Assembly (NCBI GenBank): GCA_002441545.1
Contig: DJWL01000005.1
Location: 7,533-71,532 of the forward strand
Length of the DNA stretch: 64,000 nt
Direction: 5' to 3'
Source of the DNA: Flavobacteriaceae bacterium UBA6231
GTDB taxonomy: Bacteria > Bacteroidota > Bacteroidia > Flavobacteriales > Flavobacteriaceae
Shown here: piece by piece, positions 5,649 to 63,758 of the stretch
How the letters are laid out: each line of letters starts with the position of its first letter
Numbering within the stretch: the stretch's first letter is position 1
Made by a program: the position numbers and the translations under genes
The notes under the pieces: model-generated
What the model was told of the DNA's origin: nothing
The model's database searches: none
What the model saw: the letters and a program-made list of their open reading frames with translations, nothing else

Positions 5649-6566
5649 ATGACTAGTTTTTTAAATCTTATCCGCTATAAAAACCTGTTAATGATTGCTT
5701 TAGTGCAAAGTCTTATTAAATACGGCCTTTTAGTTCCATTTGGCATAAGTACTTCTCTTGATAATTTTGAGTTTTCACTATTAGTGTTTTCAACTATTTG
5801 TATTGCAGCCGGAGGAAACATTATCAATGATATTTATGATGTTGAAACAGATGCTATCAACAAACCAGAAAAGATAATTGTTGGGAAATTAATTTCAGAA
5901 AAAACAGCTTATAACCTGTTTATCATACTTAATGTTTTAGGTGTTGGTTTAGGTTTTTTTGTTTCTTATGTCGTTGGTAAAAGTGAATTGTTTTCAATTT
6001 TTGTAATTGTATCAGCACTACTCTATGTGTATGCCAGTTATTTAAAACAAATGTTTTTAATTGGAAACATAATCATTTCTGCTTTAGTTGCCCTAAGTAT
6101 TATAATCGTTGGTATTTTTGAATTAATTCCTGCTATTACGTCTCAAAATCAAGGTATTCAATTAGCTTTTTTTAGAATATTGCTAGACTATGCATTGTTT
6201 GCTTTCATTATAAATTTAATTCGTGAAATTGTAAAAGACATTGAGGATTTTGATGGAGATTATAAATCTGGAATGCATACATTACCAATTGTTATTGGCA
6301 AGGAAAAAGCTTCAAAAGTCTTATTTCTATTATCTTTTATTCCACTAGGAACAGTAATTTATTATATTAACAGTAATCTTTACAAACAACCAATTGCTGT
6401 CATATATTTTTTGATTTTCATAATAGCTCCATTAATTTATTTAAGCATATTAATTTTTAATGCAAGAACTAAAAAGGACTTCCATGTTATTAGCAACCTT
6501 CTTAAATTAGTTATGCTCTTGGGGATGCTATCAATTTTACTATACAAGATTATTTTATTACCATAA
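5649..6566 (+). CDS. UbiA-family prenyltransferase, DGGGP-synthase-like
   Basis: NIINDIYDVETDAINKP and REIVKDIEDFDGD Asp-rich motifs; multi-TM. Confidence 0.85.
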   Translation: MTSFLNLIRYKNLLMIALVQSLIKYGLLVPFGISTSLDNFEFSLLVFSTICIAAGGNIINDIYDVETDAINKPEKIIVGKLISEKTAYNLFIILNVLGVGLGFFVSYVVGKSELFSIFVIVSALLYVYASYLKQMFLIGNIIISALVALSIIIVGIFELIPAITSQNQGIQLAFFRILLDYALFAFIINLIREIVKDIEDFDGDYKSGMHTLPIVIGKEKASKVLFLLSFIPLGTVIYYINSNLYKQPIAVIYFLIFIIAPLIYLSILIFNARTKKDFHVISNLLKLVMLLGMLSILLYKIILLP

Positions 6567-7162
6567 TGTTAAACGAAAAATTAAAAGACTACCATATTAT
6601 TTTAGCTTCTGGATCACCTAGAAGACAATTGTTTTTTAAAGAGTTAGGAGTTGATTTTGAAATTAGGTTAAAGCCTGTGGTAGAAGAATACCCAATAAGA
6701 TTGCGCCATTTTGAGATAAGTGATTACTTAGCTCAATTAAAGGCTTTGCCCTTTAAAGATGATTTAAAGGATAAAGAAATTCTTATAACAAGTGATACTA
6801 TTGTTTGGCATAACAACAAAGCTTTAGGAAAACCTATTAATGAAACTGATGCTTTCAATATGCTGAAATCAATCAGTAATGCTACACACGAAGTTATTAC
6901 ATCGGTTTGTTTTACTTCAAAAACATCGCAAAAAACTTTAAGCGATATTACCAAAGTGACTTTTAAAAATCTTACGGATGATGAAATAAATTATTATATA
7001 AAAACCTGCAAACCATTTGATAAGGCTGGAGCCTATGGCATCCAAGAATGGATTGGACAAATTGGTGTAACTAAAATTGAAGGGTCTTATTTTAATGTTA
7101 TGGGACTACCCGTACATTTAGTATATAAAGTGTTAACAGAAATTTCAACACAAAAACTATAA
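6566..7162 (+). CDS. maf: Maf-family nucleoside triphosphate pyrophosphatase
   Basis: ILASGSPRR, ITSDTIV, GKP, DKAGAYGIQ, NVMGLP. Confidence 0.93.
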   Translation: MLNEKLKDYHIILASGSPRRQLFFKELGVDFEIRLKPVVEEYPIRLRHFEISDYLAQLKALPFKDDLKDKEILITSDTIVWHNNKALGKPINETDAFNMLKSISNATHEVITSVCFTSKTSQKTLSDITKVTFKNLTDDEINYYIKTCKPFDKAGAYGIQEWIGQIGVTKIEGSYFNVMGLPVHLVYKVLTEISTQKL

Positions 7163-23139: not shown

Positions 23140-24440
23140 AGCAATCTGTAAATATTTTTTGGTTTAGACGAGATTTAAGACTTGAAGACAATGCAGGATT
23201 ATTTGAAGCCTTAAAGGGGAAGAATCCAGTACTTCCAATTTTTATTTTTGATTCCAATATTTTAGAACACCTTCCTGAAGATGATGCCCGAGTTACTTTT
23301 ATTCATGAAACACTACAAGACCTAAAGCAAACCCTTAAAGATTATTACGAGAGCGATATTGCATTATATCACGGAGAGCCATTAGATATTTATAAACATC
23401 TCATTTCAAATTATTCTATTGAAACTGTTTACACAAATCATGATTATGAACCTTATGCAAACAAAAGAGATAAAGAAATAAAAGACTTTTTAGCGACTCA
23501 AAACATAGAATTTAAAACTTATAAAGATCAAGTCATTTTTGAAAAGAATGAGATACTAAAAAACAATGGCACTCCATATGTAGTCTACACACCTTACATG
23601 AAAAGATGGAAAGCTATATTTAATTCTAAAAAATTAATTCACTTTGATTCAAAATCAAATTTATCTAAGCTTGTTAAGAACTTTAATGTGGCTGATTGTA
23701 ATCTTTCAGAAATGGGATTTAAAACGTCTTCACAAAAAATAAAAGAATATAACGTTTTATCTGATTTAATTAAAAATTATGAAGCAACACGTAACTATCC
23801 TGCACAGGATTCTACCTCTCGGTTAGGTCCACATTTACGTTTTGGAACTGTAAGTATTCGTTCAATAATTGAAAAAGTTGTTTCTGAAAAAAATGAAATC
23901 TTTTGGCAAGAACTTATTTGGCGCGAGTTTTTTATGCAGATTTTATGGCATTTTCCACACACATCTACCCAAAGTTTTAAACCACTATATGATCGTATTT
24001 TATGGCGAAATAATGAACTAGAATTTAAAATCTGGTGTGAAGGAAAAACAGGTTATCCATTGGTAGACGCTGGTATGCGTCAATTGAATAAAACAGGATT
24101 TATGCACAATCGTGTACGTATGCTGGTTGGTAGTTTTTTATGTAAACATTTATTGATTGACTGGCGTTGGGGTGAAGCTTATTTTGCTGAAAAACTACAC
24201 GACTATGAAATGGCTAGTAATGTTGGAAACTGGCAATGGGTAGCTGGTTGTGGTGTTGATGCTGCTCCATATTTTAGAATATTTAACCCTACAACGCAAA
24301 TTGAAAAGTTTGATAAACACTTAACTTATATTAAAAAATGGGTGCCGGATTTTCAAGAATTAACCTATCCAGCTCCTATGGTTGACCATCAGTTTGCCAG
24401 AGAACGCTGTTTGCAGGTTTATAAAAAATCCTTAAATTGA
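23136..24440 (+). CDS. phrB: CPD DNA photolyase
   Basis: WFRRDLRLEDN, TSRLGPHLRFG, WREFF, TGYPLVDAGMRQL, HNRVRM, NVGNWQW. Confidence 0.93.
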   Translation: MKQSVNIFWFRRDLRLEDNAGLFEALKGKNPVLPIFIFDSNILEHLPEDDARVTFIHETLQDLKQTLKDYYESDIALYHGEPLDIYKHLISNYSIETVYTNHDYEPYANKRDKEIKDFLATQNIEFKTYKDQVIFEKNEILKNNGTPYVVYTPYMKRWKAIFNSKKLIHFDSKSNLSKLVKNFNVADCNLSEMGFKTSSQKIKEYNVLSDLIKNYEATRNYPAQDSTSRLGPHLRFGTVSIRSIIEKVVSEKNEIFWQELIWREFFMQILWHFPHTSTQSFKPLYDRILWRNNELEFKIWCEGKTGYPLVDAGMRQLNKTGFMHNRVRMLVGSFLCKHLLIDWRWGEAYFAEKLHDYEMASNVGNWQWVAGCGVDAAPYFRIFNPTTQIEKFDKHLTYIKKWVPDFQELTYPAPMVDHQFARERCLQVYKKSLN

Positions 24441-24464
24441 ACAAATATTTCATTTTAAATAACC

Positions 24465-24749
24465 ATGCTAAATAAACGATTTAAAATTATCTTAATAGGC
24501 ATATTTTTAATACTACTTGTTCCATTTGTAGCCATGCAGTTTAGCACTGAAGTTTCCTGGAGTTTATTTGATTTTATAGTGGCAGCTTTATTGTTGCTTT
24601 CCACTGGATTATTGTGCGAATTTGTTTTAAGAAAAATAGCTAACCCTAAATATAAGATTATCTTTTTGATAATTGTCATTGCCGTCTTCTTGTTAATCTG
24701 GATTGAACTTGCTGTTGGAATTTTTGGTTCGCCATTTGCAGGAAGCTAA
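24465..24749 (+). CDS. Small three-TM hypothetical membrane protein
   Basis: 94 aa, hydrophobic, co-oriented after phrB. Confidence 0.7.
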   Translation: MLNKRFKIILIGIFLILLVPFVAMQFSTEVSWSLFDFIVAALLLLSTGLLCEFVLRKIANPKYKIIFLIIVIAVFLLIWIELAVGIFGSPFAGS

Positions 24750-24786
24750 CAATTTGCATATTTTTCATTTTATATTCTTAAAACTA

Positions 24787-25225
24787 ATGAAACAACCCCT
24801 ATTAATCTTTCTATTGCTGCTTGCAGGATGTTCAAGACAATCAAATCAGTGCAAGAAAATTGACAATGAAACTGCCAAAAAAGTTGTTATCGATTATTTT
24901 AAGGCCATTTCAAACAAGAACTTTGAAACTCTTAAAAGTCTCTGTCAACCCAAGATTATGTTCTTTTCGAAGTGGAGAAATATGGAATAATGATACCTTA
25001 ATTGATCGAATCAAAAAGAGTCCACAAGTACAAAGAAACTATGAGTTCAAAAATTTCACAATAGAAACCGATTGTAATGGTTCTTTTATTAACTATTTGA
25101 ATCATGGCATTTTTAAAATAAATGACACAACCCTAATTAACATTAACTGAATAGAATCCGCTTATGTAAAAAAAGTTGATGGTAATCTTAAACTTCACTT
25201 TTTACATTCGTCTATTGCAAAATAA
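24787..25225 (+). pseudogene. Disrupted NTF2-like/DUF4440-type lipoprotein gene
   Basis: Lipobox LLAGC, frameshifts near 24945-24975, in-frame TGA at 25148-25150, then IESAYVKK...LHSSIAK*. Confidence 0.7.
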
Positions 25226-25263
25226 AAAAAATCACACTAAATCTTTCTTTTTCTTAATTTTGC

Positions 25264-26208
25264 ATGATATCAATTGTTATGCAAATCTCAGGAAAACGTT
25301 ATTTAGATTACTCTTCTTTTATTAAATCTACATTTGGAAGTCGGGTACAAAAAATATCAATAAATATTGGTTTTTCGTGCCCAAATAGAGATGGCTCTAA
25401 AGGTTTTGGCGGATGTACATATTGCAATAACAATACTTTTAATCCAGATTACTGCGGTTCTACAAAAAGTATTAAACAACAATTAGAAGAAGGTATTAGT
25501 CGCTTTTCTAAAAAATATAAAACCCAACAATACTTAGCATATTTTCAAGCTTACACAAATACATATGCAGATTTAGAATCTCTAAAAAGCATGTACGAAG
25601 AAGCCTTATGTGTGCCAAAAGTTATTGGACTGGTTATTGGTACCCGACCTGATTGTATTTCTGAAGAGATTATTGATTATCTATCATTTTTATCAAAAGA
25701 CTACTTTATTTCTCTTGAATTTGGAGTTGAAAGCACTATAAACAGAACTTTAGAAAATGTTAATAGATGTCATACGTTTGAAGATACCAAAGCTGCTTAT
25801 AACTTGTGTAAAAACAAAGGGTTTCATTTAGGTGCCCATTTAATATTAGGTTTACCAGGAGAAACTAAAGAAGAGTTGTTAAACCATGCAATAGAAATTT
25901 CTAAACTTCCTATTACTACCCTAAAACTTCACCATTTGCAAATTGTTAAACAATCAATAATGGTAAACCAATATAAGAGAAACCCAGAAAATTTCAATTT
26001 ATTTACTTCTGAAAATTATATTGACTTTATTGCTGAGTTTATTGAAATACTTCGACCAGATATTATTATAGAACGCTTTGTTAGTGAAGCACCTTTAGAG
26101 TTATTGATTGCTCCAAAATGGCATTTTAAAAATTTTGAAATTGTAGCAAAAATTGATAAAAAAATTTTAGAAAAGAATACTTGGCAAGGAAAATATTATA
26201 AACAGTAA
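25264..26208 (+). CDS. TIGR01212-family radical SAM protein
   Basis: CPNRDGSKGFGGCTYC, YFQAYTNTY, IGTRPDC; may start at ATG 25279. Confidence 0.9.
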   Translation: MISIVMQISGKRYLDYSSFIKSTFGSRVQKISINIGFSCPNRDGSKGFGGCTYCNNNTFNPDYCGSTKSIKQQLEEGISRFSKKYKTQQYLAYFQAYTNTYADLESLKSMYEEALCVPKVIGLVIGTRPDCISEEIIDYLSFLSKDYFISLEFGVESTINRTLENVNRCHTFEDTKAAYNLCKNKGFHLGAHLILGLPGETKEELLNHAIEISKLPITTLKLHHLQIVKQSIMVNQYKRNPENFNLFTSENYIDFIAEFIEILRPDIIIERFVSEAPLELLIAPKWHFKNFEIVAKIDKKILEKNTWQGKYYKQ

Positions 26209-55596: not shown

Positions 55597-55619
55597 GTGA
55601 TCGCGACAGGATTCGAACC
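55597..55619 (-). repeat. att site: 23-bp duplicate of a tRNA 3' end (probably tRNA-Arg TCT)
   Basis: Minus strand GGTTCGAATCCTGTCGCGATCAC = T-loop, T-stem and acceptor 3' strand; no upstream tRNA body. The isotype comes from recall and is unverified. Confidence 0.8.
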
Positions 55620-58121: not shown

Positions 58122-59234
58122 TCATTTAATATTCAACCAATATCGCGTACCTTTCAATGCTCCCGTTTTTATTAGCATTTTCTTATCTAACATGTCCTTT
58201 AAATCACGCGTAGCAGTTGATGCAGACGTTTTTGCAATTCTAATGTAGTTTTCAGCACTTAAGCCCCCTACAAAACCTTGAGGTCCCGCTGCAAATAATC
58301 GATTTACAACTTTTAATTGGCGTTCATTTATTTGATTTGAATAACGATCGAAGAACTTGGCTTTCTCTATTATAAAATCGATGAGCTTTAGGGTGTCCTC
58401 TTGGGCAACTAAAATGGCATGCCCAAAATATAGCAACCAATCGGTTATATCACAGGTTTTATTACTATATTCCAACGCTTCGTAATACCTTTTTTTATTG
58501 GCTTCAATGGTTTTTGACAATGAAATCAATGCAGGTTGTCCAATGCTTTGAGAAATTGATTTTTCTGCTAAGGCACGGGCTATCCTTCCATTGCCGTCTT
58601 CAAACGGATGTATGCTAACAAAATAAAGATGTGCAATACCTGCTTTGGTTAAGGGCAACAAGGTGTTTGGTGTTTCAATATGGAATTTATTGAACCAAGC
58701 TACAAACTGTTCCATTTCTTTTGGCATTTGGTTTGATGGAGGCGCTTGGAAATGAACTGTTGGTCTGTCCAATCTACCCGAAACAACTTGCATAGGGTCT
58801 TCATGGGTTCTATATGCGCCTATGTCTGTTAAGTCCCTTCTTCCGCTTGCTAGCATTCTATGCCAATCGAATAATTGCTGATGGGACAATTGTTTAGAGT
58901 AATTTTGATATAAATCCACCATCATTTCAGAAATGCCAAATTCAGCAGGAGCCACTTTTCTTTTATCTACGCTTAGCCCCAGATTCTTCTTAATGGAAGA
59001 CTGAATACTGTCCCTATCTAAATACTCACCCTCAATTTCCGAGGTTTTTAAGGCCTCATTGGATAGCAATTCAACAATAAACAGCTCTTTCTCATTTTCG
59101 CTAACATGTTTTAAAGCACCTAAAACAGTCCCAATGTTTTTGGAAAACTGTAATTCCACAACTTTTAAAGCTTCTTCGTTATAGGTAAAATGAGGCCATT
59201 CCTTGGATTGCCAATTCCATATTTTACGTTCCAT
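58122..59234 (-). CDS. Fic-family AMPylase (class II, DUF4172-type N-terminus, C-terminal wHTH)
   Basis: HPFEDGNGRIAR catalytic motif; TSEIEG inhibitory motif; STATRDL..M...G..KGTRY wHTH. Confidence 0.9.
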   Translation of the reverse strand: MERKIWNWQSKEWPHFTYNEEALKVVELQFSKNIGTVLGALKHVSENEKELFIVELLSNEALKTSEIEGEYLDRDSIQSSIKKNLGLSVDKRKVAPAEFGISEMMVDLYQNYSKQLSHQQLFDWHRMLASGRRDLTDIGAYRTHEDPMQVVSGRLDRPTVHFQAPPSNQMPKEMEQFVAWFNKFHIETPNTLLPLTKAGIAHLYFVSIHPFEDGNGRIARALAEKSISQSIGQPALISLSKTIEANKKRYYEALEYSNKTCDITDWLLYFGHAILVAQEDTLKLIDFIIEKAKFFDRYSNQINERQLKVVNRLFAAGPQGFVGGLSAENYIRIAKTSASTATRDLKDMLDKKMLIKTGALKGTRYWLNIK

Positions 59235-59354: not shown

Positions 59355-59666
59355 TTAAAAGAATTTACAAGTAATCAATACTACAGAAACGACAATATTA
59401 AAAATAAAAACTACCACAGCCCAAGTCGGATAAATCTTAGCTTGGTCAATTTTATCATTAAATCGACTTTCAAAACCTCCTATCATGTTTTTATGTATGT
59501 CCATTTGTTTTTGATGCGCTTCAATAATTGCTTTGTATTCCGCTACATCCATTTTGATTTTGGTCATATTCAATTGTTCATTGATTTTTTCCAGTCTTTC
59601 AATGCCCTTGTTAAAGTCATGGAGCTCATTGACCAAAAGAGAGGTCAGTTCTTCAAGTTTTGTCAT
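59355..59666 (-). CDS. Coiled-coil protein with C-terminal TM helix, downstream of the relaxase
   Basis: 103 aa, co-oriented in the mob operon. Confidence 0.7.
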   Translation of the reverse strand: MTKLEELTSLLVNELHDFNKGIERLEKINEQLNMTKIKMDVAEYKAIIEAHQKQMDIHKNMIGGFESRFNDKIDQAKIYPTWAVVVFIFNIVVSVVLITCKFF

Positions 59667-59681
59667 GATTGTTATGTTTAA

Positions 59682-60545
59682 TTAATATCCTATATCGATT
59701 CCTTTATCGATGGCCCTTTTAATAATAAACTTGGTGATCTTTAAAGCCAGGTTCGGTGTCAGGTCAACCACTTTACCAGCCAGTTTGATACTTACATTGT
59801 TATCTTTTAAAATACTGGCACCTTGAATCCCAGACATCTGTTTGCCAATATTTCCAAGTGACATATTACGATGGACTTCGCTACCTTTAAGATTGTGACC
59901 ATCAAATTCAAATCGAAAGCCCTGTAGTTTGTTCTGGTTGTTTATGCTCGGAATGACTTTAACCCCATTGGCTTCCATCGCTTTTAAATAAGCATCAAAA
60001 GATTTGGGTTTGAACTGTTTCATGGTCAGATCATGCCGGCGTTTGATCTCTGTTCGTATTTCAATTAAATTAAATTCTTTTTCAAATTGGATTTGTTTGA
60101 CGGTGGTCAATCCCATATGTTCTGCTACTTTTTCTACCACCTGTTGACTTCGTTTACCTATAAAGCTGTCGTTATAAGCCACGCCTTTAAAATCAATGCG
60201 GTTGACATATAAATGGATGTGCTTATGCTCTTTGTCCCGGTGTACAAAGGCTATGGCCTGTCGTTCTCCCAGTTTCATTTCATGCATAAAACGTTTGGTG
60301 ATGGCTTGAAGCTCTTCCTTTTCCAATAGCTTGCCATCTTCTATCGTTGGGCTGATGACAAAGGACAAGGTATTTTTTGTACAGTTATGATTTTGGTACT
60401 GGAGCATCTTGAACTCTTGGGCAATCTCTTTTGGGGTATCGCCATGCAGAAACTCTTTAAGTACCACTTCAGCATCCTTTTCCTGGTTCCACCCGTAGGA
60501 CATGGAAGCCATGGTGTGCGATATGCTTTTGCCCTTTCCTATCAT
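59682..60545 (-). CDS. MOB-P-type relaxase
   Basis: N-terminal Tyr (SYG), FVISP, HRDKEHKHIHLYVNRI His triad. Confidence 0.88.
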   Translation of the reverse strand: MIGKGKSISHTMASMSYGWNQEKDAEVVLKEFLHGDTPKEIAQEFKMLQYQNHNCTKNTLSFVISPTIEDGKLLEKEELQAITKRFMHEMKLGERQAIAFVHRDKEHKHIHLYVNRIDFKGVAYNDSFIGKRSQQVVEKVAEHMGLTTVKQIQFEKEFNLIEIRTEIKRRHDLTMKQFKPKSFDAYLKAMEANGVKVIPSINNQNKLQGFRFEFDGHNLKGSEVHRNMSLGNIGKQMSGIQGASILKDNNVSIKLAGKVVDLTPNLALKITKFIIKRAIDKGIDIGY

Positions 60546-61060
60546 GGTTGGAATTTTTTAAGATGTGCCTTGATCTCGTTTGCCAGGTCATAGACTTCCT
60601 GTGTCAATTTGGGATTCCGTTTTTTGAACATGTTCCCAATGGACTTGAAATTGTTATGGTATTTAATCAGCATCTTATAAATATTGATATGTTCTTCAGT
60701 AAACCGTTCCGTGATTTCCTGTTCAAAAAGACTGCGCCGTATGTATTCGCTCAAGGTCAATCCACTTCGTTTTGACTTAACTTTTAGGAGCTTCTTTTCA
60801 TAAACGGAACATCGAAACTTAACGAGGTCACCCTTCCCCTTAAACACTCCTTTTTTTTCTTTGCGACCTTCGGGAGCAAACGAGAATGTGCCCACAGGCA
60901 CACATCTCGAATTCCTACCCACTAGCATTTCGTTTTCCGATAGATCCTCTTCCAGATCGAGTTCCAAGCTATCAGATTGACCGAGTACTTCAGTAGGAAT
61001 CTTTAGTGTCTGCTTCGGCTCATCTTTGAAATAAAAATCATTTTCATCTTTCTTTTCCAT
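60542..61060 (-). CDS. mobC: MobC-like RHH relaxosome accessory protein
   Basis: VKFRCSVYEKKLLKVKSKRSGLTLSEYIRR; NNFKSIGN; 4-nt overlap with the relaxase. Start uncertain (ATG 61060 or GTG 60847). Confidence 0.8.
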   Translation of the reverse strand: MEKKDENDFYFKDEPKQTLKIPTEVLGQSDSLELDLEEDLSENEMLVGRNSRCVPVGTFSFAPEGRKEKKGVFKGKGDLVKFRCSVYEKKLLKVKSKRSGLTLSEYIRRSLFEQEITERFTEEHINIYKMLIKYHNNFKSIGNMFKKRNPKLTQEVYDLANEIKAHLKKFQP

Positions 61061-61898
61061 GGCTTATCAATTCGTTTAAGTCTTTATGGTTTTCATACCT
61101 GCTACTTTTATCCATAGCATGTTTATATGATTCAATTAAATATTTGGTAACCTTTTGTCCGGCTGCATCCCTATCCAAGTAGAGGTGTACCAAATCATAG
61201 GTTTCGAAATTTTTTTCAGCTTCCTTAATAAAGGCAATTGAGTTTAAAACCAGAATATCAGATGTGCTCAAGAGATCTTCATCCAACATGGCCAAGGACA
61301 ATAGATCGAACATGCCTTCCAACACAACAAGCTGTTTGTTTTTGTTTTGGATGTAGGTATAGGATTTAGGACTACTACTGTTTTTAAACAGCTTGTTCCT
61401 TAATTCCCAACCATTTTTATGGTTCCTTAATCCTACAGCAAAAAAGGCTTTGTCTTTATAACTGTACCACACTTCCTTGCAATAGGTTTTGGCAACCTTT
61501 ATGGCAATGCCCCTTGACCTTATATATTGGAGCAGGGCAGGATGTTCCAGTTCCTTTACTTTTATAATATGAATCCTTGATTCCAACGTATTGCCAAAGG
61601 GTTGCCGTTTGATAGGGCCAATAGCATCATTATCATCCAAAAAAGCCAAGGCTTCTTTTATCGTGCACTTTAAAACTTTGCATACCAAATCGATCACATT
61701 GCCCCCAATGCCCTCGCCGTGGTCGTACCATCGGTTCTTGGTCCTGGAGACCTTGAAAGAGGCTTGGGTTTCTGACCGAAAGGGACTCAGAAACCAAGCT
61801 TCTTGTTCCGTTGTGCGATTGGGAAAGTGCCCTAATTTTTCCAGTGCCTTTTCCACTGAAAAATTACGGGCTGTTTCACAATTTATTTTTCTTTTCAT
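61044..61898 (-). CDS. Toprim-domain DNA primase-like protein
   Basis: SPFRSETQASFKV..N.WYDHG.G.GGNVID; VLEGMFD; LYLDRDAAG. Confidence 0.85.
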   Translation of the reverse strand: MKRKINCETARNFSVEKALEKLGHFPNRTTEQEAWFLSPFRSETQASFKVSRTKNRWYDHGEGIGGNVIDLVCKVLKCTIKEALAFLDDNDAIGPIKRQPFGNTLESRIHIIKVKELEHPALLQYIRSRGIAIKVAKTYCKEVWYSYKDKAFFAVGLRNHKNGWELRNKLFKNSSSPKSYTYIQNKNKQLVVLEGMFDLLSLAMLDEDLLSTSDILVLNSIAFIKEAEKNFETYDLVHLYLDRDAAGQKVTKYLIESYKHAMDKSSRYENHKDLNELISHGKER

Positions 61899-62014
61899 CT
61901 GCTTATATTATTTTAAATTTCGGTCAGATGCAACACCCTGAATAATCATCCTCGTGTGTGTGAATGTAGTTCTTATGGGTGTTTCATAAGCCAATGTGTT
62001 TTAGGGTGTTTTTT

Positions 62015-62218
62015 TGATGATATGATGACAGCAGCCTCTAAACCCTTGCCATGACTGGCTTTTCCCTGTCATCATTTTGTCATCAAATCATCATCTATGT
62101 GTTTTTTAATCGCTTTTCTGTCATCATTATTTTTTTTGATGACAGTTTGATGACGGTTTGATGACAGCCTTAGCCCTTATAAACAGGGGCCTCAGCTCAT
62201 TCCGTCATCGTGTCATCA
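62015..62218. repeat. Iteron-like TGATGAC/GTCATCA array (candidate replication origin)
   Basis: Eight exact copies in both orientations, including three tandem 11-bp units TTTGATGAC(A/G)G at 62135-62167. Confidence 0.75.
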
Positions 62219-63402
62219 AAATTTTTGTCCAAAAAATCTTTTTTCACCGTAAAATAGCGTCCTTTTCCATCTGTCAGATTGATATCTCCATCGCTCCAAA
62301 TGACCATTTTTTGGTATTTGTTGGAATTGGATTGGTTCGCTAGTTTCCAATCCACCTTCAGTAGTTTCCTCAGTTGGGTCAGGTCCGTTTTCACCCGGGT
62401 CTTGTTCAGGATGCACAGGGCATCCAAAGGGCACAGGTGCAATTCATCCAGATCAAATTTTTCCATCACGTCCAATAGAATGCTTGCCAGCTCCTTTTCT
62501 ACACGGTTGCGGTTGTTCTGTACCAACTTTGTCAAGGCGGTTGTCTTTATCTGTTGGGCAGTGAACCACATACGGGTTAAGTGTTTTGAATGTAGTTTCC
62601 GGTTTGCTAGATAATAAAGGAAGGCTGGGATTTCTTCAATCAATTTCTCTAAGTAGTTTGTTTGCTCTGCTTCCAGAACCGGTACTTTGATTACCCAGAA
62701 CCGGGTCTCATTGGAATCGATTTTTATAAAGCTTTCTTCATTGTTGCTGCAAAGGATAAACTTGCCAAAGAACTCAACTTCCCGTTTGTCCTTGCCCTTG
62801 GCTTCCAGCTTGTTGATATTGGTGGTACTAAGGTACTTGATGCGCTCAGTAAGTTCCTCCTTATTGAACAGCACTTCGTCAATACATATCAAAAGCTTGT
62901 TTGCCCAATCGGCATTGAACTGGCTGCTAAAGCTGTCATTGGTCAGATAGGTCAGGTTGTTCTCAAAGATTTCCTTGAGCCATTTCAAAAAGGTGCTCTT
63001 TCCCGTGGAGCGTTCCTTGGAGACCAGGCATAATATTGGCAGTACCTGGATGGGCTTTAGATACAACAATTGGAGGTAGTCCAATCCAAGTTCGTGGTGC
63101 TTTCCGAATATGTGCTTTACGAACTTTAGCGATAAGGTAACGTCTCCCTCTTTGGGCACTTTGCCCAAGGGGGAGTAGATGTTATAGAACCCCAGATATT
63201 CCTGTTTAAAATCCAAATGGCTCGGGATGCAGGTAAAGCCATCGTATTTGGGGATCTTGCTCAAATGGTCCTTGCCATGGTCCTGCTTGATGGTCTCCAT
63301 GTTCCACTGCACCAGAATCTCATTGAAGTGACCAGCTATGGTTGGGGCTTTCACGCGTTTATAATAGGACGTGCCCACACGTATATAGGGTATCTGTTTC
63401 AT
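62197..63402 (-). CDS. SF3-type P-loop helicase (primase-helicase / VirE-like, DUF5906-type)
   Basis: SKERSTGKSTF Walker A, ICIDE Walker B, ILCSNN; ATG 63402 preferred. Confidence 0.82.
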   Translation of the reverse strand: MKQIPYIRVGTSYYKRVKAPTIAGHFNEILVQWNMETIKQDHGKDHLSKIPKYDGFTCIPSHLDFKQEYLGFYNIYSPLGKVPKEGDVTLSLKFVKHIFGKHHELGLDYLQLLYLKPIQVLPILCLVSKERSTGKSTFLKWLKEIFENNLTYLTNDSFSSQFNADWANKLLICIDEVLFNKEELTERIKYLSTTNINKLEAKGKDKREVEFFGKFILCSNNEESFIKIDSNETRFWVIKVPVLEAEQTNYLEKLIEEIPAFLYYLANRKLHSKHLTRMWFTAQQIKTTALTKLVQNNRNRVEKELASILLDVMEKFDLDELHLCPLDALCILNKTRVKTDLTQLRKLLKVDWKLANQSNSNKYQKMVIWSDGDINLTDGKGRYFTVKKDFLDKNFDDTMTE

Positions 63403-63470
63403 AAGAAGTGTTTTTGTGCCATGGGATGCCACGGCCAATTGCTAACTGTTTGATTTTGTCTTGAAAAAGT

Positions 63471-63758
63471 TTAGGCATTCTTGTTCGCCAGATTACTTGT
63501 TTGGGTGTTGTCCGTTATTTTTAGTTTGGGTTCTCGCTTATGTTGGAGCAACCAATCCACAAGCCTTTGTTTATCAAAAAAGACCATTTTCCCATTGGGC
63601 TTTGAGTGGGGAATTTTTCCGGAGGCCGTGAGCTTGTATAAATAGCTTCTGGATATGCCCGTATAATCACTGGCTTCATCAAAGGTCAATACTTCTTTGC
63701 TTCCTACAAGTAGTTTTTCTAAACGATCCAATCGTTCCAGTATTAAAATAGTGTCCAT
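63471..63758 (-). CDS. Excisionase-family HTH protein
   Basis: LTFDEASDYTGISRSYLYKLT...IPHSKPNGKMVFF. Confidence 0.87.
   Translation of the reverse strand: MDTILILERLDRLEKLLVGSKEVLTFDEASDYTGISRSYLYKLTASGKIPHSKPNGKMVFFDKQRLVDWLLQHKREPKLKITDNTQTSNLANKNA

Follow-up and report, generated by a model that had tools for sequence, protein, structure and literature searches.

A helicase-linked heptad array as candidate replication origin of an integrative mobilizable element in Flavobacteriaceae

The genome of Flavobacteriaceae bacterium UBA6231 carries a tRNA-integrated, mobilizable element of ~10 kb, which lies partly within the 64,000-nucleotide stretch analyzed here (contig DJWL01000005.1, positions 7,533 to 71,532, hereafter the window). 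Its core follows the order int-xis-helicase-array-primase-MbpA-MbpB, with all module genes on the minus strand. Between the genes for a superfamily 3 (SF3) helicase and a DnaG-like primase lies an array of short repeats of the heptad TGATGAC. We consider this array to be probably the cognate iteron-type replication origin of the element, or the loading site of its helicase, working in a manner similar to the Rep-ori system of the Staphylococcus aureus pathogenicity islands (SaPIs). An earlier inspection of the bare letters, here called the sequence-only reading, had placed a candidate origin between a helicase and a primase gene, and Pfam matches confirmed both genes.

Eight exact copies of the heptad are present, four as TGATGAC (62023, 62137, 62148 and 62159) and four as GTCATCA (62068, 62079, 62120 and 62212). 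Together with the near-copies TGATGAT at 62015, ATCATCA at 62087 and GTCATCG at 62204 this gives 11 heptads within 204 bp (62015-62218), and all of these positions were correct in the sequence-only reading. The window contains 19 copies of TGATGAC/GTCATCA in comparison to 5.3 expected, and 19 copies were reached in 0/100 shuffles. Genome-wide, 503 copies are found in the 3.62-Mb assembly, and the array is the sole site in that genome with at least four exact copies inside 250 bp. Within the part of the window occupied by the element, only one other exact TGATGAC was found, at 60353. A comparison with known RNA families in Rfam yielded chance sub-threshold matches only.

The array is mirror-symmetric, reading >>, 38 nt, <<<, 43-nt AT-rich centre, >>>, 38 nt, <<. 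The proposed 11-bp spacing of the repeats holds for the steps 62068 to 62079 and 62137 to 62148 to 62159, but three other steps (62015 to 62023, 62079 to 62087 and 62204 to 62212) measure 8 bp. An inverted pair around a T-run had also been noticed and is indeed present, with CTGTCATCA (62118-62126) and TGATGACAG (62137-62145) on either side of TTATTTTTTT. On a larger scale, two inverted repeats are nested around a common centre near 62116. Complementarity reaches 77% in the 30-nt inner arms (62066-62095 with 62138-62167) and 89% in the 18-nt outer arms (62012-62029 with 62204-62221).

To follow the array through related elements, one genome per species was scanned, and relatives of the helicase were found encoded at 425 places. 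The 80 best of these 425 all belong to Flavobacteriaceae, show 73-92% helicase identity and share the order xis-helicase-gap-primase-mbpA-mbpB. Absence of the array from related elements had been named beforehand as the outcome that would speak against an origin. A heptad cluster was present in the helicase-primase gap of 78/78 loci where this gap could be delimited, mostly in the arrow pattern >> <<< > >>> << or close variants of it. In the commonest layout, shared by 19 loci, the successive distances of 8, 44/45, 11, 11, 17, 33, 8, 11/12 and 44/45 are invariant, whereas the sequences of the 38-nt spacers vary freely despite the fixed spacings. Such constant distances around variable spacers would be expected for a site of protein-DNA assembly. 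The gap itself measures ~211 bp in the relatives, where it is wholly filled by the array, and 302 bp here. A homologous CATCAAAAAAAATAATGATGACAG block of the AT-rich centre recurs in most of the relatives listed, and the flanks of the GATGA core differ within the close family (TGATGAC versus CGATGAA). In Yeosuana marina (L051) the gap is 352 bp long, and the array is enlarged by an extra heptad module in comparison to the usual 211-bp form.

A second related element resides in the same genome on contig C65 (~24440-26000, minus strand), where a helicase with 69% identity is followed by a primase, MbpA and a relaxase. The two halves of its array stand in swapped order, and its heptads are a mixture of CGATGAA, CGATGAC and GTCATCA. 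The differences between the heptads of the two elements may reflect divergence between co-resident elements.

More distant helicase homologues were taken from circular PLSDB records. Four of them show 46-48% identity: in Phocaeicola 'plasmid 58' (47%) and Bacteroides uniformis pBUN1 (46%) the heptad is TGATGAA and the downstream genes encode a Toprim protein, joined in pBUN1 by a MobV relaxase; in Phocaeicola 'plasmid 50' (48%) TGTTGAG/TGTTGAA precedes a Toprim gene; and in B. finegoldii 'plasmid 55' (46%) TGTTGAA (read as TCAACAA) precedes two open reading frames (ORFs) without Pfam match. The fifth, an 806-aa fused primase-helicase of Fulvitalea pFA13 (29%), is followed by nine copies of the unrelated heptad TGTTACA, then by small ORFs and SSB. 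Heptads at 43-49% helicase identity are close variants of the one here. At 29-48% identity, the array thus directly follows the helicase stop codon regardless of the downstream genes, which argues that it goes with the helicase and not with the mobilization genes. Circular 'plasmids' of 15-30 kb from B. finegoldii and Phocaeicola massiliensis (L081, NZ_OY725957.1; L083; L084) likewise have an array behind a helicase homologue. The B. finegoldii record (L081, 15.9 kb), the sole one examined in full, also encodes an integrase and is without another recognisable Rep. Such circular 15-30-kb records are suggestive of replication but may be excised islands that were assembled as circles.

As an unbiased sample, DUF5906 loci were collected from 301 Bacteroidota genomes and the 350 bp past each gene were tested for repeated 7-mers against shuffles. 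Significant arrays lay downstream of all seven genes of the ~400-aa type (TGATGAC, TGATGCA and TGCAACA) and of 4/7 fused genes of 760-890 aa (AAGTACG, TATGGCA, ATTCTTA and GATTACC). The motifs of the ~400-aa family are all variants of TG(A/T)TG(A/C)(A/C); the motif sequence drifts with the helicase lineage.

We further asked which protein the array diverges with. Among the close relatives, array divergence followed the C-terminal domain of the helicase most closely (Mantel r=0.50; residues 296-400, codons overlapping heptads excluded), ahead of MbpA (0.36), the primase (0.30), MbpB (0.27), helicase residues 1-295 (0.25) and Xis (0.17); since linkage and common descent inflate such values, they are supporting evidence and not proof. 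Individual loci show the same uncoupling from the neighbouring genes: L037 and L056 share 92% Xis and 93% MbpA identity, yet their array types differ, and L037 shares its array type with L001 despite an identity of only 65% in Xis and 48% in MbpA.

The C-terminal tail of the helicase is itself encoded by the first heptad pair (62200-62220) and reads FDDTMTE with TGATGAC heptads. In the relatives L103 and L107, whose heptad is TGATGCA, the tail is FDALMQD/N. With the tail codons being the heptad pair, the protein tail and the putative binding site change together.

The helicase is an SF3 enzyme of the D5-like type and belongs to the same fold family as SaPI Rep/PriRep. Its homologues are 401 aa long, so that the true start probably lies at 63402. 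A full-length AlphaFold model was mediocre (predicted local distance difference test score, pLDDT, of 69); Foldseek nevertheless matched it to the NrS-1 helicase (E=1e-9), PriRep1-dsDNA (1.4e-3), SaPI5 PriRep and poxvirus D5/E5 (7pds and 7ola among the matches). When the C-terminal 117 residues were modelled alone, the pLDDT rose to 84.7 and the order of elements was helix-strand-helix-helix-strand-strand, which is that of a winged helix.

SaPI Rep reads its iterons through a C-terminal winged helix, 6-12 iterons stand immediately downstream of rep, and the origin consists of an AT-rich centre with at least two iterons per side in opposite orientation (PMC9371898). The sequence-only reading had likened the array to SaPI and P4 origins, and the SaPI half of the comparison fits this published layout. 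The two systems share the fold class of their self-loading SF3 helicase, an adjacent primase gene and an integrase-bearing island as the carrier. In both, short iterons directly follow the helicase ORF (11 here, starting within the last codons; likewise in relatives) and an AT-rich centre is flanked by opposite repeats, here three heptads per side, although the halves are permuted in the C65 element. Differences from the SaPIs and other phage-inducible chromosomal islands (PICIs) concern the 7-nt heptads, arranged at constant 8/11/45-bp distances in two ~100-bp modules, the placement of the first heptad pair in the last helicase codons, and the DnaG-like Zn-finger/Toprim primase, encoded downstream of the origin and not upstream of rep. 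The element furthermore carries a relaxase/oriT (origin of transfer) module and no phage-interference or packaging genes, and phage records contain almost no members of its helicase family.

The array and its conservation are secure. Its action as an origin would comprise three events that we infer, namely recognition of the heptads by the C-terminal domain of the helicase, melting of the DNA and replication. The SF3 helicase would recognise the TGATGAC heptads, probably via its C-terminal domain, and heptads 8 or 11 bp apart would let several protomers line up on the same DNA face. On each side, the clusters, being mirror images, would then assemble helicase rings of opposite orientation, and the DNA would melt, with the 77% AT central segment next to the inner triples as the prime candidate for this step. 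The neighbouring Zn-finger/Toprim primase would finally prime synthesis by the host polymerase. The likely role is a transient replication of the excised circle, similar to that of other islands, which would serve stable inheritance and provide a substrate for relaxase-mediated transfer; a permanent plasmid life of the element is less likely.

Several observations, besides the inflation of the Mantel values mentioned above, weigh against this assignment. The permuted halves of the C65 element show that not every array has divergent iterons around an AT-rich centre, and the functional unit may instead be each ~100-bp convergent module and not the whole dyad. The 38-nt spacers are richer in GC than the genome. 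None of ~16 DUF5906 genes of the 480-540-aa type in the Bacteroidota sample had a clear downstream array. Foldseek returned no significant PDB match for the isolated C-terminal-domain model (best E=0.09), so the putative winged-helix assignment follows from its topology only. The Bacteroides helicases of L084 and L085 have near-identical putative recognition helices, yet their heptads are of the TGTTGAG type and the TGATGAA type, respectively, and no clear residue switch was seen in the recognition helix between Bacteroides elements of these two types. Finally, elements with this backbone have been named 'nonreplicating Bacteroides units' (NBUs; PMC11389934).

Among the alternatives, a regulatory or architectural operator survives best, although we regard it as unlikely. 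According to this explanation, the helicase, the HTH_17/Xis-like protein or another protein of the element would bind the heptads and either control transcription of the primase-mob genes or build an excision or partition complex, without any firing of replication. The position of the array is favourable, because in the relatives it occupies the entire 211-bp gap upstream of the primase start, the place of a promoter or operator, and an HTH_17 gene lies upstream of the helicase in this family. Moreover, excision of NBU1 depends on an extensive internal segment that includes two genes and oriT (PMC5704250). However, the array type does not track Xis identity, arrays also follow helicases whose upstream ORFs lack an HTH_17 match (pFA13 and pBUN1), and a partition complex would have to do without a partition ATPase of the element. 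Eleven sites in mirror symmetry whose core is AT-rich and which extend into the end of an SF3 helicase gene reproduce the layout of a SaPI origin and would be excessive for an operator.

RepB' of plasmid RSF1010 starts the complementary strand at ssiA/ssiB. By analogy, the array could be a single-strand initiation region, whose inverted repeats (B/C and A/D in Table 1) would fold into hairpins after entry into a new cell and serve the Toprim primase of the element for the start of the complementary strand. The complementarity of the nested arms described above would suit such hairpins, the primase gene adjoins the array, and the relaxase transfers the element as single-stranded DNA. Against this stands what is conserved among the relatives, namely heptad identity and the 8/11-bp phasing, and not arm complementarity, while the spacers vary freely. 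The B. finegoldii element, in which the heptads mostly point one way and a Toprim primase was not recognised, also speaks against it, and the array type does not track the primase. We therefore judge this explanation improbable, and more so than the operator.

Transfer, in turn, has a candidate site of its own. Just upstream of the ribbon-helix-helix (RHH) domain of MbpA, a hairpin is followed by a 22-nt, almost invariant, nick-like block (Table 1), and hairpin and block were found in 71/71 loci covering the region, including those with a non-coding segment and an identity of only ~50% in primase and MbpA. The stem shows compensatory changes, from CGAGA/TCTCG to CAAGA/TCTTG and, in its inner part, between GTGCC/GGCAC, GTGTC/GACAC and GTGGC/GCCAC, next to a longer GTGTTTTTGT/ACAAAAACA form. 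These features make it likely that the segment comprises oriT and its nick region. In this element the mbpA ORF is extended at its N-terminus and includes the oriT-like site, which in Maribacter-type relatives lies within a 96-nt non-coding gap. With such a site at hand, transfer can be accounted for without the heptad array.

Short repeats, tandem or inverted, are the targets of RHH proteins. MbpA, as such a protein, could thus in principle use the heptads as accessory sites of the relaxosome, making the array oriT or part of it, and no non-coding stretch upstream of the mob genes is longer than the array, which precedes the primase-mbpA-mbpB operon; this was set aside as very improbable in view of the far better hairpin site, of arrays of the same design beside a MobV relaxase or no recognisable relaxase, and of array types uncoupled from MbpA/MbpB, as in L037 and L056.

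The coordinates of the array, the neighbouring genes and the other features of the element are listed in Table 1. Outside the window follow the gene for a tyrosine integrase (C90:71703-72941), the tRNA 3' end and the right copy of the 23-nt repeat (C90:73157, to 73179). The genes for DUF6730 and Fic are part of the minus-strand module, and those for HipA N- and C-terminal domains lie on the plus strand. The ~10-kb element contains no mating-pore (type IV secretion) genes, no partition ATPase and no Rep_3-type or similar gene. An integrase, repeats of the tRNA 3' end and a relaxase without mating-pore genes together define it as an integrative mobilizable element of ~10 kb.

Table 1 Features of the heptad array and of the surrounding element (window positions).
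Feature	Position	Strand	Remarks
Heptad (iteron-like) array	62015..62218	.	11 TGATGAC copies/near-variants; counts, shuffles, conservation in relatives
Outer pair A	62015..62029	+	TGATGAT + TGATGAC, 8 bp apart
First 38-nt spacer	62030..62067	.	47% AT; length kept in relatives (44/45 bp heptad-to-heptad), sequence variable
Inner triple B	62068..62093	-	plus strand GTCATCA, GTCATCA, ATCATCA; spacing 11 and 8 bp
AT-rich centre	62094..62136	.	43 nt, 77% AT; lone heptad 62120-62126 and T/A run; candidate unwinding region
Inner triple C	62137..62165	+	TGATGAC x3; spacing 11 and 11 bp
Second 38-nt spacer	62166..62203	.	47% AT; includes helicase stop codon 62197-62199
Outer pair D	62204..62218	-	GTCATCG + GTCATCA; within last helicase codons (…FDDTMTE, stop), dual-coding
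HTH_17/excisionase-family DNA-binding protein	63471..63758	-	
DUF5906/VapE-like SF3 (D5/NrS-1-type) helicase	62197..63438	-	Pfam PF19263 E=2e-21
Insertion of ~89 nt, unique to element	61899..61987	.	between ancestral primase start and present ATG (61896-61898); interval ~211 bp in relatives vs 302 here
DnaG-like primase, CHC2 zinc finger + Toprim	61044..61898	-	PF13155 6e-12, PF01807 4e-6
Candidate oriT	60859..60909	-	hairpin CGAGATGTGTGCC-TGTG-GGCACATTCTCG, then conserved block TTTGCTCCCGAAGGTCGCAAAG; just upstream of MbpA RHH domain
MbpA/NikA-like RHH relaxosome accessory protein	60542..61060	-	domain at residues 77-167
MbpB-like MobA/VirD2-type relaxase	59682..60545	-	PF03432
DUF6730	59355-59666		
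Fic	58122-59234		
Direct repeat of tRNA 3' end, 23 nt	55597..55619	+	GTGATCGCGACAGGATTCGAACC; left end of ~10-kb element

NBU1 has the gene order tyrosine integrase, small DNA-binding protein, helicase-like gene, primase and relaxase, which we used to compare the backbones. Judged by this order, the element belongs with the mobilizable elements of the NBU1/NBU2 and Tn4555 type. It also shares with them integration at a tRNA 3' end with direct repeats, a relaxase and oriT-like site of its own and the lack of type IV secretion genes, and the locus of the B. uniformis homologue follows the order int-int-ORF-helicase-array-Toprim-MobV. In contrast to the replication proposed here, NBU and Tn4555 elements are described as non-replicating, and the searched literature yielded no description of iterons or an origin in Bacteroides mobilizable elements.

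On a more tentative level, which we consider possible but would not yet favour, the proposal may extend to the whole NBU/Tn4555-like class. Its members would possess a conserved helicase-cognate origin and replicate after excision. This origin would be a design of its own and consist of two interchangeable ~100-bp modules of convergent heptads with a fixed 8/11/45-bp geometry, its first iteron pair would lie in the C-terminal codons of the initiator, so that tail and origin co-evolve, and the heptads of co-resident elements would diverge against cross-talk. If the array is a functional origin, mobilizable islands of a type very common in Bacteroidota pass through a replicative phase, contrary to their textbook name. 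The breadth of the class is reflected by the 425 places in species-representative genomes and by the homologues in gut Bacteroides and Phocaeicola. A replicative phase would bear on the persistence of islands after excision, on the single-stranded DNA substrate for transfer, on incompatibility between related islands and on how assemblies come to report such islands as small 'plasmids'. For genetic work in Flavobacteriia, where few vectors exist, the compact unit of helicase, 204-bp array and primase would then also be a candidate minimal replicon.

The sequence-only reading had inferred a hybrid of a satellite-type replicon with a conjugative mob module; the scan for helicase relatives identifies this combination as no peculiarity of the element but as the standard backbone of a very large Bacteroidota family. 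A search of 50,697 phage records gave one weak match to the helicase only, and a phage origin of the helicase was rejected on these grounds. With the family almost absent from phage records, 'satellite-type' describes an analogy and not an ancestry. Membership among phage satellites of the PICI or P4 kind was likewise rejected, as none of the int, xis, helicase, primase, MbpA, MbpB, DUF6730, Fic and HipBA genes of the element is a phage-related induction, capsid-redirection or packaging gene.

The alpha protein of P4 is a fused primase, SF3 helicase and origin-binding protein, and P4 needs two iteron clusters, ori and crr, which lie kilobases apart. Primase, SF3 helicase and origin-binding functions acting on short iterons in both orientations are common to P4 and the proposed system, as is an integrase, but here the genes are split, the cluster is single and crr is missing, which makes P4 a poor model. 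Classical iteron plasmid origins (RepA/pi) differ by their 17-22-bp direct repeats and by a winged-helix Rep without helicase activity, in comparison to 7-nt repeats in both orientations here. SGI1 (Salmonella genomic island 1) is reported to be a mobilizable island that replicates when a helper IncC plasmid is present (PMC7433901). It resembles the element as an integrative mobilizable island with a replication function of its own besides mobilization, but comes from a different phylum.

The additional length of the helicase-primase gap is due to the ~89-nt insertion listed in Table 1. The ancestral primase start, TTATGAAA, has its ATG at 61985-61987 on the minus strand. The edges of the insertion carry a duplicated ATGAAA, and the old primase start now reads ATG AAA CAC CCA TAA. 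No further copy of the insertion was found in the genome or in the 80 related loci, and its reading as a miniature inverted-repeat transposable element was rejected. The motif GGGTGTT, which the sequence-only reading had counted as part of the array, does occur at the three positions given there (61932, as reverse complement, 61977 and 62004). It is not enriched in the window (9 copies versus 5.3 expected, with 9 reached in 12/100 shuffles), and two of the three copies fall inside the insertion, which is absent from all relatives. GGGTGTT therefore lies outside the conserved array and was rejected as a part of the origin. The sequence TGGCTTA beside the ancestral primase start, which had been considered as a ColE1-like nick site, is lineage-variable and without an inverted repeat and was dropped.

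In the locus of Yeosuana aromativorans (L024, ~6290-6880), the segment from the primase 3' end to the mbpA 5' region is doubled around a run of N; either an assembly artefact or a tandem duplication is the probable cause.

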